A stretch of 36,154 nucleotides of DNA, from the UHGV virus genome UHGV-0071286, one strand, 5' to 3'. The notes under the pieces were generated by a model, which saw only the letters and a list, made by a program, of their open reading frames with translations, made no database searches and had not been told where the DNA came from. Positions 2,762 through 26,861 of the stretch are shown here, piece after piece. The stretch is from a virus. Positions within the stretch are counted from its first letter, which is position 1. The number at the start of each line of letters is the position of its first letter. The position numbers and the translations under genes are program-made.

Positions 2762-3154
2762 TCAGTATCCCACCACGGTATAACGCAGCAGAACATTCAG
2801 GGTACCGGTCGCAGCAGCTGTCTTAATGGTGACCGTAACCAGCTCTCCATCACTCTGTGTGGTGTACGGCTCCACTGGCACATATTTAGCAAAGCTGGCA
2901 GTTACTGCACCACTGTCACCAATGAGCTCATGCTTGCCAGATTTAACGCTGACGGTCGCCGTACCACCAAGACCACCTTTTGAAATCAGTTGGATCCCAT
3001 TAATGCGAACGCCAGTCGGCAGTGAGAGAAGATTAATAACGGTTTCCTGTTCGGCAGCATTCACTGTAAACACACCTTCTGCCACCGACTCATTACCATG
3101 CGTACCTGAATAAACCCGCTCACTCAGTGACGGAGCAAGGATAGTCTTTGCCAT
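2762..3154 (-). CDS. Small head-associated protein (130 aa, possible decoration/Ig-like protein) flanked by terminators
   Basis: ATG at 3154 with SD AGGAG; Gly/Thr/Val-rich beta-like composition; immediately after the coat gene; terminators on both sides. Confidence 0.5.
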   Translation of the reverse strand: MAKTILAPSLSERVYSGTHGNESVAEGVFTVNAAEQETVINLLSLPTGVRINGIQLISKGGLGGTATVSVKSGKHELIGDSGAVTASFAKYVPVEPYTTQSDGELVTVTIKTAAATGTLNVLLRYTVVGY

Positions 3155-3167
3155 AATTAATGACTCC

Positions 3168-3192
3168 TGAAAAAGCCGGGCGATAACCCGGC
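3168..3192 (-). terminator. Rho-independent terminator after the major capsid gene
   Basis: Minus-strand hairpin GCCGGGTTATCGCCCGGC (3175-3192) followed by UUUUUCAGG. Confidence 0.6.
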
Positions 3193-3208: not shown

Positions 3209-4423
3209 TCACAGCTTCACTGCGGTATCAACGGCAATAACACCGTGATCCTGCATCTTGCCGCTCTTCTCGGGGAAACGGATTTTTTTCAGACCGTTGA
3301 TCCAGCTGATTGCTATCTCAGTACGGTTATCCATATCCGTTTTCTTCTCAACCATGTTGAAGTGGCCGCCGCCCTTCTGGCCGTACGCATTCGCCAGCGC
3401 CTGAGCCCCCAGCAGCATGGCACGGTCGATGTTGGTCTTGGCCTGCTTCTCCTCTGTGGTTGCTGCCATATCGTTTTTCGATACAAGGACCTTTGAGTCC
3501 TTATAGAAACGGATCGGCATCCCCGCATACTTACGGACCAGAATATTGCGCCACATCGCACATTCGCCTTTGAACAGCGGATGGTTAAACCCTTTTGAGC
3601 GGTTTACGGCACGCGTCATCATCTGGTTCCAGTCCTTGCCGGACGTGGAGGTGTACCAGTCATTCCACTGACGCGGCGTGACGTAGAGGACGTAATACGG
3701 ATCTTCGCCATACAGCTCATCACCGGACAGGCGTACCGGTTGTAACGGATGAGCCATCTCGTCAATAAACAACGAGAGATTATCGACCAGCGCAAGAGTG
3801 AACAGGTCAGACTGGTCAATACTCTCAAAACTCGTCGCATCCCCACCGAAAAAATGACGATCATGCGTCGGCGGCAGTACGTCGTTGATCATGATTTTTT
3901 TGAATTCAGGGTGATCTGCCGTTGGCAGAATGGTGTCATCAGCAACAAAATCACCGCGGGCACCGGCAAGATGCACTATCGCACACTGGTCCTGCAGGTC
4001 GTTAAAGTACGTACCCAGCAGCGTTCTGGCAGAGGATGCCAGGTTGAACTTCGTACGCTGTTGGCTCATACGTCCGCCCGCATCCACCAGGTGACGGCCC
4101 TGATTAATTTTCAGGGAAAAATCAGCATGGCTGAGGTCTTCACCACGGCCTTCAACGCGCTCATCCCCCATCGTCGGACGTTTAGAGAGTTTGTGCATGA
4201 TGCTGAACGTCACTTCATCACCGGCCTGTTTGTTGAGGTCCGTGATTCGCACAACCGGTGCACCGGCACTGGTCTGCTTCGTGCTTTTCTTGTCAGGCGA
4301 AACTGCTTTTGGTGCATCCTGCTGTTCAGTGAGTATATTCACCATTGAGCGGTTGCGGTTGGCAGCCGTGAAAAGCGCCACCTGATACAGCTTATTCGCC
4401 TGGGCTGTTGTTACTGTGGTCAT
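3209..4423 (-). CDS. Major capsid (coat) protein, 404 aa
   Basis: Position after terminase, portal and scaffold in the canonical head-gene order; size typical of HK97-fold coat proteins; strong terminator downstream. Assigned from gene order, not from recognised sequence. Confidence 0.6.
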   Translation of the reverse strand: MTTVTTAQANKLYQVALFTAANRNRSMVNILTEQQDAPKAVSPDKKSTKQTSAGAPVVRITDLNKQAGDEVTFSIMHKLSKRPTMGDERVEGRGEDLSHADFSLKINQGRHLVDAGGRMSQQRTKFNLASSARTLLGTYFNDLQDQCAIVHLAGARGDFVADDTILPTADHPEFKKIMINDVLPPTHDRHFFGGDATSFESIDQSDLFTLALVDNLSLFIDEMAHPLQPVRLSGDELYGEDPYYVLYVTPRQWNDWYTSTSGKDWNQMMTRAVNRSKGFNHPLFKGECAMWRNILVRKYAGMPIRFYKDSKVLVSKNDMAATTEEKQAKTNIDRAMLLGAQALANAYGQKGGGHFNMVEKKTDMDNRTEIAISWINGLKKIRFPEKSGKMQDHGVIAVDTAVKL

Positions 4424-21739: not shown

Positions 21740-22510
21740 TCACTTTGTTGTCGGTGAATGAACCGGAATATCAGCAATCGAACTGAAAATATCCCGGTGT
21801 TTATTCAGCTCCCGCAGCGCGGCGCAGACTCGCTCCCACTTCTGAACATCACTTTTCGCCCTGCGCAGCGCCAGGTTTGCCCTGCGAAGGGACGGAAAAA
21901 TCAGCTCATCTGCTTGCGTTTCGGTAAACGATGGCAACGGCTGCACAATGTCCGCCACAGTTTCTGTTTTAATTTCTTCCTGTGTTGCGGCTTCCCGGAC
22001 TGGTAACGCAGCACCTGCTGGCTGAGGAAAGGCCTTACCATCACTTTCCGTTACCAGCGCGGCTTTCGGCTCTGCTGGTAAATTATCGCCCGGCATGCAG
22101 TAACGAAATTTACCGTTCTGATTAACGCGTGCCAGCCGCCCCGTTGCGGTTACCACCGCCAGCGTGGAAGCAACCTTGCGAGTGGTAACTCCGAACTTAC
22201 CCGCTATTTCTTCACAGGTTTTAGCCCCCTCCTGAGAGATAAACTCAATCATCATGTCAGCGCTAACTTTTGGAGCGACCTCTTCGGTCAGCATATCCTG
22301 TGTTTCAGATTTTACTGGCCGCTCTTCGGTTACCCCGGCTTCACCTTCGACAGCCAGAAACCAGGTGTGACCCGTTTTATCAACAACGCCATTTTTTTTG
22401 AGCTCCCACAGTTCGTTGAGAACTTCTTCACGGCTGATATCAAGCCGCGCCGCCAGTTCAACAGAATTGGCTTTTCCCATCGCTTTCAGTGCATGCAATA
22501 CGGTTTCCAT
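21740..22510 (-). CDS. Hypothetical protein (256 aa) downstream of the helicase loader
   Basis: ORF track; N-terminal winged-helix-like segment; conserved position after dnaC-like genes in lambdoid prophages (recall). Confidence 0.5.
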
Positions 22511-22535
22511 CGAAAATTTACCTCGTCAAAAATTC

Positions 22536-23276
22536 TCACATACCCTGACGTCCAACGTTTGACCGCCAGTTCTCCCAGTTAAAATTCACCCAACGACCAC
22601 CGTTCATGGTCATCCGGTCCATAATCCTCTCACCAAGAAGCGTGCTCATTGCGGCATGATTCAGGTTTGTCAGCATCCCGACACTGCGCAGTGATGCCGT
22701 CCGGCGGTCAACAATCTGGTGCAGTACCACCTGCTCGTTTTTCGTCTCACGCTGGATGCCAATTTCGTCAAGAACCAGGAGGTCCACTTCGCACAGTTCA
22801 CGCAAAAATTTTTCCCCTGACAGTCCGTCGTCATAGCTGGCATGTAACGCGCTCATCACATCCGCCACGGTGACCACTATCACGGATTTACCGGCCTTCA
22901 GCAGACGATTACCCACAGCCGCCGCCAGATGATTTTTTCCGGTTCCCGGATTCCCGCTGAACACGAAGTTTGTATAACCGGTCATCAATTCATCGACAAT
23001 GGATTTCGCCTGGCTCAGAGCATGGCGCTGACCGTCGTTCTGCACCCGGTAGTTCCCGAATGAGCACTTCCTGTGAAGCGGCTGGATGCCCGAACGATTC
23101 AGGATTTTTTCAACCCGCGTCTGGTGATTCTGGCGGTTAACTTCCTCGCTGCGCTTCCGGCCCTCAGCCAGTTGCCATTCCCGCCATTCGTCGGTCGTCC
23201 GGAACGGTGCTGCCACGTGCGGTGGTGCCAGACGGCGCACCCGTTCAAGAATCCCTCCTGTCGAAATGTTTTTCAT
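22536..23276 (-). CDS. dnaC: DnaC-like helicase loader (AAA+ ATPase), 246 aa
   Basis: Walker A FSGNPGTGKNHLAAAVG, Walker B LLVLDEIG, and near-colinear similarity to E. coli DnaC (…HRKCSFGNYRV…). Confidence 0.85.
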   Translation of the reverse strand: MKNISTGGILERVRRLAPPHVAAPFRTTDEWREWQLAEGRKRSEEVNRQNHQTRVEKILNRSGIQPLHRKCSFGNYRVQNDGQRHALSQAKSIVDELMTGYTNFVFSGNPGTGKNHLAAAVGNRLLKAGKSVIVVTVADVMSALHASYDDGLSGEKFLRELCEVDLLVLDEIGIQRETKNEQVVLHQIVDRRTASLRSVGMLTNLNHAAMSTLLGERIMDRMTMNGGRWVNFNWENWRSNVGRQGM

Positions 23277-23282
23277 GGCTGA

Positions 23283-24365
23283 TTACCCCCTGAAACCCGG
23301 CGGAATTTCGGTGTCCGGTTCAGAAATGTGATTCACGCAACGCAGGCTGACTGCGCCAGCCTTCGGCAGCGACCACGGATTTTCGAAATTCCTGTTCGGG
23401 CCAAAAAACGTCGATGCCTGCTGAACAAATTCAGTTCCCGCTTTCCCGGTAGCCTCCAGGTATCTTGCGTAACGCCTCACGCCATCCAGCACGACATCCG
23501 GTGACACCCCTTCGCGTAATCTGGCCCTCCAGGCATTGAACGCGGATTTCTTCGGGTTTGACCCTGCCCGATGCGGATATTCACGCCAGACCCGTTCGAA
23601 CACGTCAGGATAATCAACTCGTCCCGCAGACGGTCCCGGCATCGCCCGGGTTAACCCAATCGGCTTCCCGCTCATCGCGGAATCGGCTTCAGGCTGCTGC
23701 GGTTGGCGTTGTTGCTCCGGTTCGACGATCAGCACCTGCTGCACACAACGCCCGGAATCTGCTTCCGGTGTCGTGCCATCTGGTCCTGGACGTTCAGTCA
23801 GAACAGGACAAAAATCCCCCTGTGGGTCCGTGGCGATTTTTTCGCCATGGACCAGAAGGGTTTTATCCCTTTCCTGTTCCTGTTCCTGTTCCTGTTCTTG
23901 GCTTGAAAGGGGCTCTGAAGGGGCTTCAATTTTCCGACATGATTCACGTCTGACATCCAGGTGGAAATCATCCTTATATCTATCATAAAAGGATGATAAA
24001 AAAGGATTTTCCAGCAACGCGGAATATTCATTTCTTACCCCAGCACAACGGTTATCGCCAGGTTTCAGCGATTCACCAACCTGCCATGCTGCCATTTCAT
24101 GCACCCATACAACCTCAGAATCATGGTCATAGCTGCAAAAACCAGCCTCGCAAGCCATTTGAAGCCCCTTAGAAGCCCCTTCAGGAGCAAGTCCGGTTTC
24201 GTGAGCAATGTACAAAACAGGCAGGTAATAAAGGCCCAGCATATTGGAATGAGGCGAGGTCATCATATACAACGCCACTACCATACATTCCGGACCAGAC
24301 TTCCTTAGTTTTCGCCCTGTATCGCCTAACCAGAACTGAGGTGAAATTGTTGCGTAATTACGCAT
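23283..24365 (-). CDS. Replication initiator / replisome organiser (O-like), 360 aa, with internal QEQEQEQ tract and iteron-like repeat
   Basis: Position between cII and the DnaC-like gene; SD GAGGGG; contains repeat copy A (23625-23716). Confidence 0.55.
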   Translation of the reverse strand: MRNYATISPQFWLGDTGRKLRKSGPECMVVALYMMTSPHSNMLGLYYLPVLYIAHETGLAPEGASKGLQMACEAGFCSYDHDSEVVWVHEMAAWQVGESLKPGDNRCAGVRNEYSALLENPFLSSFYDRYKDDFHLDVRRESCRKIEAPSEPLSSQEQEQEQEQERDKTLLVHGEKIATDPQGDFCPVLTERPGPDGTTPEADSGRCVQQVLIVEPEQQRQPQQPEADSAMSGKPIGLTRAMPGPSAGRVDYPDVFERVWREYPHRAGSNPKKSAFNAWRARLREGVSPDVVLDGVRRYARYLEATGKAGTEFVQQASTFFGPNRNFENPWSLPKAGAVSLRCVNHISEPDTEIPPGFRG

Positions 24366-24396
24366 AGTCCCCTCGCATACAAGATTTACTCCATAC

Positions 24397-24556
24397 CGCA
24401 GACGGTCCCGGTATCTCCCGGGTTAACCCAATCGGCTTCAGGCTGCTGCGGTTGGTGTGACTGCACATTGGTGTGACTGCACATCTTCACAGACGGTCCC
24501 GGTATCTCCGGGTTAACCCAATCGGCTTCAGGCTGCTGCGGTTGGTGTTGTTGCTG
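24397..24556. repeat. Two direct copies of a ~60-bp iteron-like unit plus a 16-bp tandem duplication, upstream of the replication gene
   Basis: CAGACGGTCCCGGTATCTCCCGGGTTAACCCAATCGGCTTCAGGCTGCTGCGGTTGGTGT at 24397-24459 and 24489-24556; GGTGTGACTGCACAT repeated at 24454-24485; a third copy lies at 23625-23716. Confidence 0.75.
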
Positions 24557-24618
24557 GCGAAATTCTTCCAGATGTGGCAGAATTATTCCCGTGTATTGCT
24601 CCATGCCCTGCCTGAATA

Positions 24619-24915
24619 TCAGATATTCATCAGGATTTGCTCAGAACGTCCGGCCCCAACCGGACGTTTTTTATTTGCATGAACGTTAATGGCATGCTGG
24701 AAAGCCCGGCTGATCGGACTGATATCAGATGCCATCTGGAACGCGCATAAAATCGCCGCGATGTATCGCCAGTCGGTACGACTGACCTTCGATTCATGGC
24801 AGCCAATCATCTTTGCCAGTCCCCTTTGCGTCAGAGCTGACAGGTTGATGAGTAAATCTGTTTCTGCGCGATCAACGTCACGCTGGGATAGTTTGCTGTA
24901 ACTTGTTTGTGTCAT
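24619..24915 (-). CDS. cII: CII-like transcriptional activator (98 aa)
   Basis: Position after cro/nutR; C-terminus NKKRPVGAGRSEQILMNI resembles lambda CII NKKRPAATERSEQIQMEF. Confidence 0.7.
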   Translation of the reverse strand: MTQTSYSKLSQRDVDRAETDLLINLSALTQRGLAKMIGCHESKVSRTDWRYIAAILCAFQMASDISPISRAFQHAINVHANKKRPVGAGRSEQILMNI

Positions 24916-25000
24916 TTCTTATGATTTCCAATAGTGAATAGCTAGTTGAAAGGTATGCGTGGAAACGCATATGGCCTTAGTTGGTCAGATATCTTGGGAC

Positions 25001-25046
25001 TCGCTTTGTCAGCGACGTAGGACGAATGTCCATTGTGAAAAGAGCG
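25001..25046 (-). promoter_or_regulatory. nutR: boxA-like CGCTCTTTTCACA and boxB hairpin UCGCUGACAAAGCGA
   Basis: On the minus strand just downstream of the cro stop; boxB loop GACAAA is the same as in the nutL candidate. Confidence 0.5.
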
Positions 25047-25053
25047 GTGTTAC

Positions 25054-25254
25054 TTATGCAGTTGTTTTTTTGTTACTTGGGAAGGGCTTTATTTCTTCCG
25101 CATAAACGCTTCCATCAGCGTTTATAGTTAAAAAAATCTTTCGGCCTGCATGAATGGCCTTGTTAATCGCGCTTTGATATACGCCGAGATCTTTAGCCGT
25201 CTTGGTTTGCCCAAAGCGTATTGCATAATCTTTCAGGGTTATGCGTTGTTCCAT
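25054..25254 (-). CDS. cro: Cro repressor (66 aa), near-identical to lambda Cro
   Basis: [65 protein letters not shown]. Confidence 0.95.
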
Positions 25255-25278
25255 ACAACCTCCTTAGTACATGCAACC

Positions 25279-25349
25279 ATTATCACCGCTAGAGGTAAAA
25301 TAGTCAACACGCACGGTGTTAGATATTTATCCCTTGCGGTGATAGATTT
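25279..25349. promoter_or_regulatory. Lambda-type right operator region: OR1 25281-25297, OR2 25305-25321, OR3 25328-25344, with PR (minus) and PRM (plus)
   Basis: 17-bp operators recognisable as lambda OR1-OR3; PR -35 TTGACT / -10 GATAAT on the minus strand; PRM -35 TAGATA / -10 TAGATT on the plus strand. Confidence 0.9.
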
Positions 25350-25351
25350 AA

Positions 25352-26068
<717 letters not shown>

Positions 26069-26099
26069 TTGTTTTATTTTTCACGTAATAGGATGATTT

Positions 26100-26861
26100 A
26101 TGACACAGTTTCAACTTGCATTAATCGCTAGAGAAGTTGATGGAGAAGTCATCCATCTTCGCACCAAAGACGGATACATCAATGCCACCGCGATGTGCAA
26201 GTCTGCGGGGAAGCTACTTGCTGACTATACACGACTAAAAACAACACAAGATTTTTTTGATGAATTATCACGCGATATGGGGATTCCCATATCGGAGTTA
26301 ATTCAATCATTTAAAGGCGGAAGAGCAGAGAATCAAGGGACTTGGGTTCATCCAGACATCGCAATTAATTTAGCTCAGTGGCTATCTCCAAAATTTGCAG
26401 TGCAAGTATCGAGATGGGTGCGTGAGTGGATGTCAGGTGAAAGAGCGCCTGCCGAACTCCCTATCCACCTTAAGCGGTATATGACAAACCGAGGCAGAGT
26501 TCCTCATACGCACTTTTCTATGCTTAATGAACTGACGTTTAACTTGGTTGCGCCACTTGAACAGGCCGGATATACGCTGCCAGAAAAAATGGTCCCTGAT
26601 ATTTCAGAGGGTAGGGTTTTCTCGCAATGGCTCCGTGACAACCGGGGGGTTGAGCCGAAGACATTCCCAACATATAACCATGAGTACCCAGATGGCCGGA
26701 CATTCCCGGTACGTCTATACCCAAACGAATATCTTGCAGATTTCAAACAACACTTCAACGAAGTGTGGCTGCCTCAGTACGCTCCTAAATATTTTGCTGA
26801 ACGAGACCAAAGGGCATTGACGTTGATTGAGAAAATCATGCTACCTGACCTTGATTCCTAA
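26100..26861 (+). CDS. KilA-N domain protein (253 aa) in the position of rexAB; BstA-like candidate
   Basis: KilA-N signature …GYINATAMCKSAGKLL…GTWVHPDIAINLAQWLSPKFAVQVSRWV…; 31 nt after the cI stop with SD AGGA; followed by a terminator and lambda-type OL. Confidence 0.7.
   Translation: MTQFQLALIAREVDGEVIHLRTKDGYINATAMCKSAGKLLADYTRLKTTQDFFDELSRDMGIPISELIQSFKGGRAENQGTWVHPDIAINLAQWLSPKFAVQVSRWVREWMSGERAPAELPIHLKRYMTNRGRVPHTHFSMLNELTFNLVAPLEQAGYTLPEKMVPDISEGRVFSQWLRDNRGVEPKTFPTYNHEYPDGRTFPVRLYPNEYLADFKQHFNEVWLPQYAPKYFAERDQRALTLIEKIMLPDLDS

Follow-up and report, generated by a model that had tools for sequence, protein, structure and literature searches.

Repeats of about 60 bp at a lambdoid replication initiator gene: a probable duplication of linker-coding DNA beside a candidate in-gene origin

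Introduction

Do repeated sequences around the start of a phage replication initiator gene mark the origin of replication, or are they the residue of recombination? This question is raised by the viral genome sequence UHGV-0071286, a stretch of 36,154 nucleotides (nt) that was analysed at its full length and is referred to here as the window. The window is a lambdoid Stx-type prophage whose minus strand encodes a replication initiator of 360 amino acids (23283-24365). Three copies of a repeat of about 60 bp lie in and upstream of this gene, and an earlier note, made from the sequence alone, had read them either as an origin with initiator-binding iterons or as the footprint of a duplication that had moved part of the origin out of the gene. 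In the iteron arrays of plasmids and phages (P1, F, pSC101, R6K), units measure 17-22 bp, and the origin of bacteriophage lambda consists of four adjacent 18-bp iterons within gene O. Lambdoid phage genomes, for their part, are mosaic and are known for mosaic-junction scars and tandem segmental duplications. The analysis described here favors, with a probability of about 0.72, a recent segmental duplication of DNA encoding the linker between the two domains of the initiator. The resulting array would probably have no role in the origin, which is likely to be found instead in clusters of 11-bp units inside the gene.

Results

Anatomy of the repeats

The window contains exactly three copies of the repeat, one within the initiator gene and two upstream of it, all on the minus strand, in agreement with the earlier description. 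The in-gene copy (23624-23716, 93 bp) is of the source type and encodes EQQRQPQQPEADSAMSGKPIGLTRAMPGPSAG, the end of the linker directly ahead of the conserved C-terminal domain (RVDYPDVF...). The gene-proximal upstream copy (24396-24458) ends 31 nt before the initiator start codon, and the second upstream copy (24490-24555), proximal to the cII gene, carries a 1-nt deletion in its hairpin loop and ends in GTTGTTGCT as the in-gene copy does. Throughout the window, a pattern representing the 41-nt left half of the repeat matched at 23627-23667 and 24399-24439 only, the third copy being missed by this gapless search because of its 1-nt deletion, and a pattern for the 26-nt right half matched at 23681, 24430, and 24520 only. 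Neither pattern had any match in shuffled sequence, so that no copy is expected by chance, and an independent repeat search of the window returned the same repeat families.

Upstream of the gene, two 90-bp units are arrayed head to tail, each composed of a 60-bp core and a 30-bp spacer with a 16-bp duplication. The tandem duplication reported earlier upstream of the initiator start was recovered as two copies of TTGGTGTGACTGCACA at 24452-24483. What sets the in-gene copy apart is a 23-nt segment, AATCGGCTTCCCGCTCATCGCGG, which is bounded by two AATCGGCTTC direct repeats and absent from the upstream copies; given these flanking repeats, exactly 23 nt would be lost by slippage. The hairpin of the form CCCGG-loop-CCGGG that had been ascribed to each copy does form in all three predicted folds, although its stem is just 5 bp and shuffled sequences do not yield clearly less stable folds (z = +0.46, -2.2, and -1.2 for the DNA of the copies and -0.27 for the RNA of the whole leader). 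The G+C fraction of the array is 0.55-0.62. As a DnaA box, the 16-bp duplicated spacer was considered and dropped (about 6 of 9 consensus positions match by eye), and CII-type TTGC-N6-TTGC sites were not seen in the array.

Source and distribution of the repeated DNA

The repeated DNA is a linker-coding segment, and homology stops exactly where the conserved C-domain begins (between …PGPSAG and RVDYPDVFERVW…). Homologous in-gene linker and C-domain DNA is found, at about 82% nucleotide identity, in phage Tritos and in the prophages L009, L016, and L017. Tritos and L009 possess an unrelated N-domain of the "replisome organizer" type, yet the same in-gene linker segment; L016 and L017 possess a window-type N-domain (about 77% identity). 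All four keep a segment of 23-24 nt in the gene, and none has a copy upstream of it. Since the segment is kept in all four, the in-gene copy is native and the upstream copies are derived. The window-type N-domain also occurs, at about 77% nucleotide identity, in 469 further Escherichia coli genomes representing an O103/O157 prophage family. Upstream copies are absent from the three loci of this family that were inspected, from Citrobacter and Raoultella prophages with a window-type N-domain, and from the isolated phages Acinetobacter YMC/09/02/B1251, Ralstonia NK-7, and E. coli Fraca, which share this domain.

The array itself has a shallow distribution. A 253-bp leader query (24366-24618) matched 82 of 5426 complete E. 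coli genomes, 76 of them at 99% identity or more to the two-unit form; one match is the in-gene linker alone and one a deletion remnant, which leaves the array in about 80 of the 5426 genomes. Six phage records carry it as well. In IMG/VR, the unit junction is present in 29 contigs, in each case as a single junction and hence as two units; the leader could be extracted from 27 of these and is near-identical to that of the window, so that no diversity is added. Carriers of the array are at least 98% identical across the module, save for the prophage of E. coli 23CRST047, which has a different unit length in an otherwise closely similar module. Absence of the repeats from replication-competent relatives, which the earlier note had named as evidence against a role in replication, is found in part: the phages PhiR5_2, POCJ13, and 75/02 all carry them, whereas the distant isolated phages do not.

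Copy-number variation, deletion, and gene conversion

The array is genetically unstable. One unit is present in E. coli G1/2, two are present in the window, and three in E. coli TOE17; 23CRST047 has three units of 113 bp in which the 23-nt segment is retained. In this strain, the in-gene copy shares a T>A change (GGCATC for GGCTTC) with all three upstream copies, and about 1 nt in 88 distinguishes the gene-proximal upstream copy from the in-gene one. Such shared changes are most simply explained by concerted evolution through gene conversion. In E. coli SW071619 (L007, 1990-2070), the cII side passes through a hybrid copy straight into the C-domain, a deletion of the 772-bp class by which the whole initiator N-domain has been lost and a frameshifted pseudogene left behind. 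This is the product of recombination between an upstream and the in-gene copy, which deleted the N-domain along with the candidate origin described below.

The ends of the units bear a further trace of exchange. Inner array units end in TTGGTGTGACTGCAC, which matches the linker of the L016/Tritos type (TTGGTGTGATTGCTC) at 13 of 15 positions, a better match than that to the resident in-gene copy; the end of the cII-proximal unit resembles the resident copy. These differing ends suggest more than one donor or repeated conversion. A nearby source (23624-23716), copy-number polymorphism, recombination products, and confinement to a shallow clade are all present at this locus, as expected of a segmental duplication. 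The order of steps is one that we infer. DNA for the end of the inter-domain linker would have been copied into the leader that separates cII from the initiator gene, where the immunity and replication modules meet, and unequal recombination would have amplified this copy into a 90-bp tandem array. The array expands and contracts between one, two, and three units and exchanges sequence with the in-gene copy by gene conversion; recombination of an upstream with the in-gene copy deletes the DNA-binding domain and the likely origin. Probably, the array takes no part in origin recognition, and its visible effect is genetic instability.

A candidate origin within the initiator gene

A repeat search returned, besides the 60-bp family, a 23-nt inverted repeat (23907-23929 and 24159-24181), each arm of which is a pair of 11-bp units. 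In the whole window, GAAGGGGCTTC occurs with at most one mismatch at 23917, 24161, and 24172 only, and a two-mismatch unit, AAAGGGGCTCT, abuts the first of these at 23906. Candidate iteron cluster A (GAAGGGGCTTC and TAAGGGGCTTC, 24161-24182), in coding orientation on the minus strand, encodes the peptide EGASKGL in the predicted recognition helix of the initiator. Candidate cluster B (AAAGGGGCTCT and GAAGGGGCTTC, 23906-23927), on the plus strand and thus inverted relative to cluster A, encodes EAPSEPL at the start of the disordered linker. The clusters are about 255 bp apart and enclose the A+T-richest DNA of the region, a patch (23940-24029) that is a candidate unwinding region with a G+C fraction of 0.32-0.35 in 60-nt windows and of 0.25 in a 40-nt window, within which a small palindrome is located (23967-23997).

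The comparison of N-domains drew on homologues in Citrobacter and Raoultella, with 70-74% amino-acid identity, and on the O103/O157 prophage family; a search of 5.8 billion proteins contributed 126 more, down to 30-45% identity, among them sequences from Klebsiella, Acinetobacter, Rhizobium, Enterovirga, and metagenomes. When the proteins are aligned, residues 62-68 (EGASKGL) hardly vary, and a second motif at the end of the N-domain, either EGASKGL again or (E/Q)APSKPL, is followed by SQEQEQEQE. Both peptide motifs correspond to one 22-nt DNA element, GAAGGGGCTTCGAAGGGGCTT, read in either orientation. Paired units recur at both of these gene positions in every N-domain relative down to an amino-acid identity of 35%, and the 22-nt pair is identical in E. 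coli, Citrobacter, Raoultella, Acinetobacter, a Rhizobium prophage (35% protein identity), and metagenomic homologues; the isolated phages YMC/09/02/B1251, NK-7, and Fraca contain the element as well. In the family of the window, cluster B is inverted relative to that of the closest enterobacterial relatives, a change that turned the peptide EGASKGL into EAPSEPL and kept the DNA site. Codon identity, determined pairwise in columns with invariant amino acids, amounts to 0.81 in cluster A versus 0.47 elsewhere, and Gly63 is encoded by GGG in 10 of 10 sequences, whereas two other invariant glycines use four codons each. The Tritos gene, with its unrelated N-domain, lacks GAAGGGGCT. Repeats of the form (C)GTGAC, spaced by about 10 bp, are observed in Tritos (L005) at equivalent positions, in two clusters 260 bp apart (3145-3183 and 3405-3443). 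The motif therefore appears to follow the DNA-binding domain while the layout is shared, as expected of initiator-binding sites.

Conservation beyond coding needs, a motif that changes with the N-domain, and an adjacent A+T-rich region are thus found together, as they would be in an in-gene origin of the lambda type. The G+C fraction dips to 0.25-0.35 at gene nt 341-400 in enterobacterial members of the family; among relatives of higher G+C content, the local minimum is weaker in some and absent in others. The in-gene 11-bp repeats are likely to be true iterons, and the origin of this replication module, like that of lambda, most likely resides inside the initiator gene. The 11-bp clusters would be bound by the initiator through its winged-helix N-domain, and the A+T-rich stretch would unwind. 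Part of the conservation of cluster A may, however, act at the protein level, since this cluster lies in the predicted recognition helix; the case for constraint on the DNA therefore rests mainly on cluster B and on synonymous sites. A full-text literature search for the 11-mer returned unrelated primer matches alone.

Several observations were made on the units and their surroundings. In Acinetobacter phage YMC/09/02/B1251 (L053), a third pair of units, AAAGCCCCTTC and GAACCCCCTTC, is located at 1462-1483, just upstream of the initiator start codon. The "frameshifted" initiator of E. coli G1/2 differs from that of the window by one substitution and, at the place of window position 23906, an 11-bp insertion that constitutes a third cluster B unit. 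Together with the deletion in SW071619, this 11-bp slip reveals two ways in which the in-gene repeats inactivate prophages. Directly after cluster B follows a run of (TTCCTG)n hexamers (23871-23897) encoding (EQ)n, the length of which varies in 6-nt steps over a 12-nt range among phages that are at least 98% identical. The peptide SQEQEQEQE at this place is conserved family-wide, and similar DNA of the GAACAG type is seen in distant members.

The initiator protein

The 360-aa initiator comprises a predicted winged-helix N-domain (residues 1 to about 140), a disordered linker, and a C-domain common to other phage initiators. It has no match in Pfam, including to the Phage_rep_O domain, and matches PHROG families annotated as replication initiator or DnaD-like loader. 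In an AlphaFold2 model built from a 47-sequence alignment, the N-domain is predicted with confidence, its mean predicted local distance difference test score being 86.5, with values above 90 for residues 11-140; the predicted topology is helix-strand-helix-helix-hairpin, as in a winged helix, and residues 147-165, which include those encoded by cluster B, are predicted to be disordered. Foldseek searches of the PDB with this model gave weak matches (E 0.01-0.06), almost all of them to winged-helix proteins (MarR, CAP, CzrA, IclR, and the N-terminal domain of O-methyltransferases), and no specific initiator structure. Cluster A encodes the start of the helix 61-73, which would be the recognition helix by its position in the model. 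The last 24 amino acids of the initiator (23283-23354; …CVNHISEPDTEIPPGFRG) weakly resemble the C-terminus of E. coli DnaT (NCBIfam NF002770, E 0.009, far below the cutoff), and the initiator gene precedes a DnaC-like loader gene, as in dnaT-dnaC.

Genomic context

On the minus strand, the gene order is cro (25054-25254), cII (24619-24915; Pfam Phage_CII, E 1e-25), an open reading frame (ORF) of 72 amino acids (24386-24604; phrog_2751), the initiator gene, a loader gene after it that encodes a DnaC/IstB-like ATPase (22536-23276), and a gene for a DUF1627 protein; cI is on the plus strand. A region of 1.5 kb shares 98.3-99.7% identity with two Escherichia phages, PhiR5_2 and phiSTEC1589-Stx1c, and with two Shigella phages, POCJ13 and 75/02 Stx. 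Shigella phage 75/02 is the type of the Stx-phage replication unit "Eru4" (PMC8951638), and the cII-initiator-DnaC-like module of the window is 98-99.7% identical to that of these four phages. In PMC8951638, the unit is classed by its genes; the word "iteron" does not occur, and none of the four uses of "origin" means a replication origin.

In an alignment with lambda, the DNA adjoining the array on its cII side corresponds to the cII-O junction and the oop RNA region, and the array is therefore situated exactly at the module junction. A plus-strand region resembling the antisense oop RNA (24590-24675) aligns with lambda oop across the 3′ end of cII, flanks included, and has an oop-like terminator hairpin with a T-run at 24643-24670; upstream of it, no consensus sigma-70 promoter was detected. 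Apart from this terminator, scanning for promoters and terminators yielded only a pR-like promoter on the minus strand (TTGACT-17-GATAAT, 25307-25279), and nothing in the array. This promoter overlaps a 19-nt inverted repeat (25281-25299 and 25326-25344), presumably the operators between cro and cI. An Rfam scan of 22000-26500 at E≤1 returned a single chance microRNA match and nothing else.

Discussion

That the three repeats are themselves initiator-binding iterons, with an origin spanning the start of the initiator gene and auxiliary sites upstream, is very unlikely. Like the iteron arrays of plasmids and phages, they consist of several direct-repeat copies in and beside an initiator gene; the three isolated phages in the clade each retain two upstream copies, the upstream and in-gene copies of 23CRST047 evolve in concert, and every copy holds (G/C)AATCGGCTTC, a match to the conserved 11-bp unit at 8-9 of 11 positions. 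Moreover, the true iteron pair just ahead of the start codon in the Acinetobacter phage indicates that upstream sites are possible in this family. Nonetheless, the units of 60-93 bp, repeated with a period of 90 bp (113 bp for both in 23CRST047), differ from known iterons, for which units of about 11-22 bp in helical register would be expected. Nor does the repeat co-vary with the DNA-binding domain, for the sequence is shared with the initiators of Tritos and L009 and absent upstream in the N-domain relatives inspected outside the clade. The array is furthermore G+C-rich, coding-derived, and polymorphic in copy number, it is confined to one near-identical clade with no support from conservation beyond it, and it lies about 370 bp from the A+T-rich patch at 23940-24029. 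Matches to the 11-mer with two mismatches are found at chance frequency (15 against 9.4 expected). The first proposal of the earlier note, an origin with initiator-binding iterons, is accordingly not upheld with respect to unit size, linkage to the N-domain, and adjoining A+T-rich DNA. Its second proposal survives as far as the duplication is concerned, but it was linker-coding DNA that was copied, and the conserved 11-bp repeats were not duplicated with it.

Of the ways in which the array might still have a function, a part in the control of the early rightward operon is unlikely: the leader RNA or DNA could adopt a structure that tunes translation of the initiator or transcript stability, or the array could be an upstream element of the adjoining antisense oop-like promoter. 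The array is contained in the transcribed cII-initiator leader, directly upstream of the region aligning with the 5′ end of lambda oop and pO, each unit has small palindromes (CCCGG/CCGGG and GGGTTAACCC), and the 72-aa ORF stops about 20 nt before the initiator start, a distance at which translational coupling is possible. Against such a role speak the unexceptional RNA and DNA structure, the lack of any sigma-70-like promoter found in or beside the array, the variation of both unit number and unit length, and the lack of conservation of the palindrome GGGTTAACCC in the homologous linker of Tritos and L016; coupling is lost in 23CRST047, whose ORF ends about 270 nt ahead of the initiator start codon. 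It is also quite improbable that the array acts through the initiator itself, its GAAGCCGATT(G/C) 11-mers serving as low-affinity sites whose variable number titrates the initiator or "handcuffs" it against the in-gene copy. If this were true, the array would set replication timing or initiator expression and would represent a copy-number-tunable control element made from recycled coding DNA. Finally, it is highly improbable that the 72-aa ORF is a true gene for a small protein in which a peptide is repeated internally, so that the DNA repeats would be merely its coding sequence. Its ATG lies 14 nt past the cII stop with a weak AGGG upstream, it is annotated in all phage records and has its own PHROG, and the variants with one, two, and three units all remain in frame (42 amino acids in G1/2, 72, and 102 in TOE17). 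However, a 90-bp unit makes in-frame variation automatic, and neither frame nor length is kept in the relative with 113-bp units, 23CRST047, where the ORF is cut to 41 amino acids and no gene is annotated. The sequence is of low complexity and linker-derived, has no match in Pfam or NCBIfam, and in tblastn searches against phages yielded no homologues outside the clade, the matches being six near-identical phage records. The earlier assessment that this ORF is a mere translation of the repeats is thus corroborated, with the proviso that its first 16 or so codons overlie DNA resembling the lambda cII-O junction and the 5′ end of oop. The frame is open because what was copied was itself coding and lies in an unchanged orientation, and the ORF would be a by-product of the duplication.

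A recent duplication without a role at the origin therefore remains the preferred explanation, and the following points weigh against it. Every member of the cII-linked clade retains at least one upstream copy, so that the array may not be dispensable; at 98% identity or more, on the other hand, the array-bearing clade is too young for conservation to count for or against function. The initiator may bind weakly to the array copies through (G/C)AATCGGCTTC, and selection for identical sites, instead of gene conversion, could account for the changes that upstream and in-gene copies share. In addition, the Eru papers, including PMC8951638, describe neither an origin nor repeats for the Eru4 module.

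Comparison with lambda places the candidate origin in a familiar setting. As in lambda, it would be located inside the initiator gene, at the boundary of N-domain and linker, with short repeated sites beside an A+T-rich stretch and a gene order of cII, initiator, and helicase loader. In contrast to the four adjacent iterons of gene O, the units of the window are 11 bp long and arranged as two distant pairs, inverted or direct, and the 60-bp repeats do not correspond to the lambda iterons. The initiator differs from its lambda equivalent in lacking a Phage_rep_O domain, and its partner is a loader of the DnaC/IstB type rather than lambda P. The array, by comparison, shows no difference of substance from the mosaic-junction scars of lambdoid phages: it lies at a module junction, is copied from the neighboring gene, varies in copy number, and has given rise to deletion and conversion products. 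It is an ordinary kind of feature with clear recombinational side effects. The orientation-flipping clusters of 11 bp, conserved at the nucleotide level in a widespread initiator family, are a modest and testable new lead.

These conclusions bear on phages of some consequence, since among the carriers of the Eru4-type module are Stx1- and Stx2-converting phages of E. coli and Shigella, in which phage replication drives the toxin dose. Reading the 60-bp repeats as a recombination scar avoids a wrong assignment of the origin and also explains defective prophages, some by repeat-mediated loss of the N-domain and one by an 11-bp iteron slip with frameshift. For an initiator family that lacks a Pfam assignment, the analysis provides a model of the origin in which the binding motif would sit within the gene, and in part within the very recognition helix that is predicted and that may read it.

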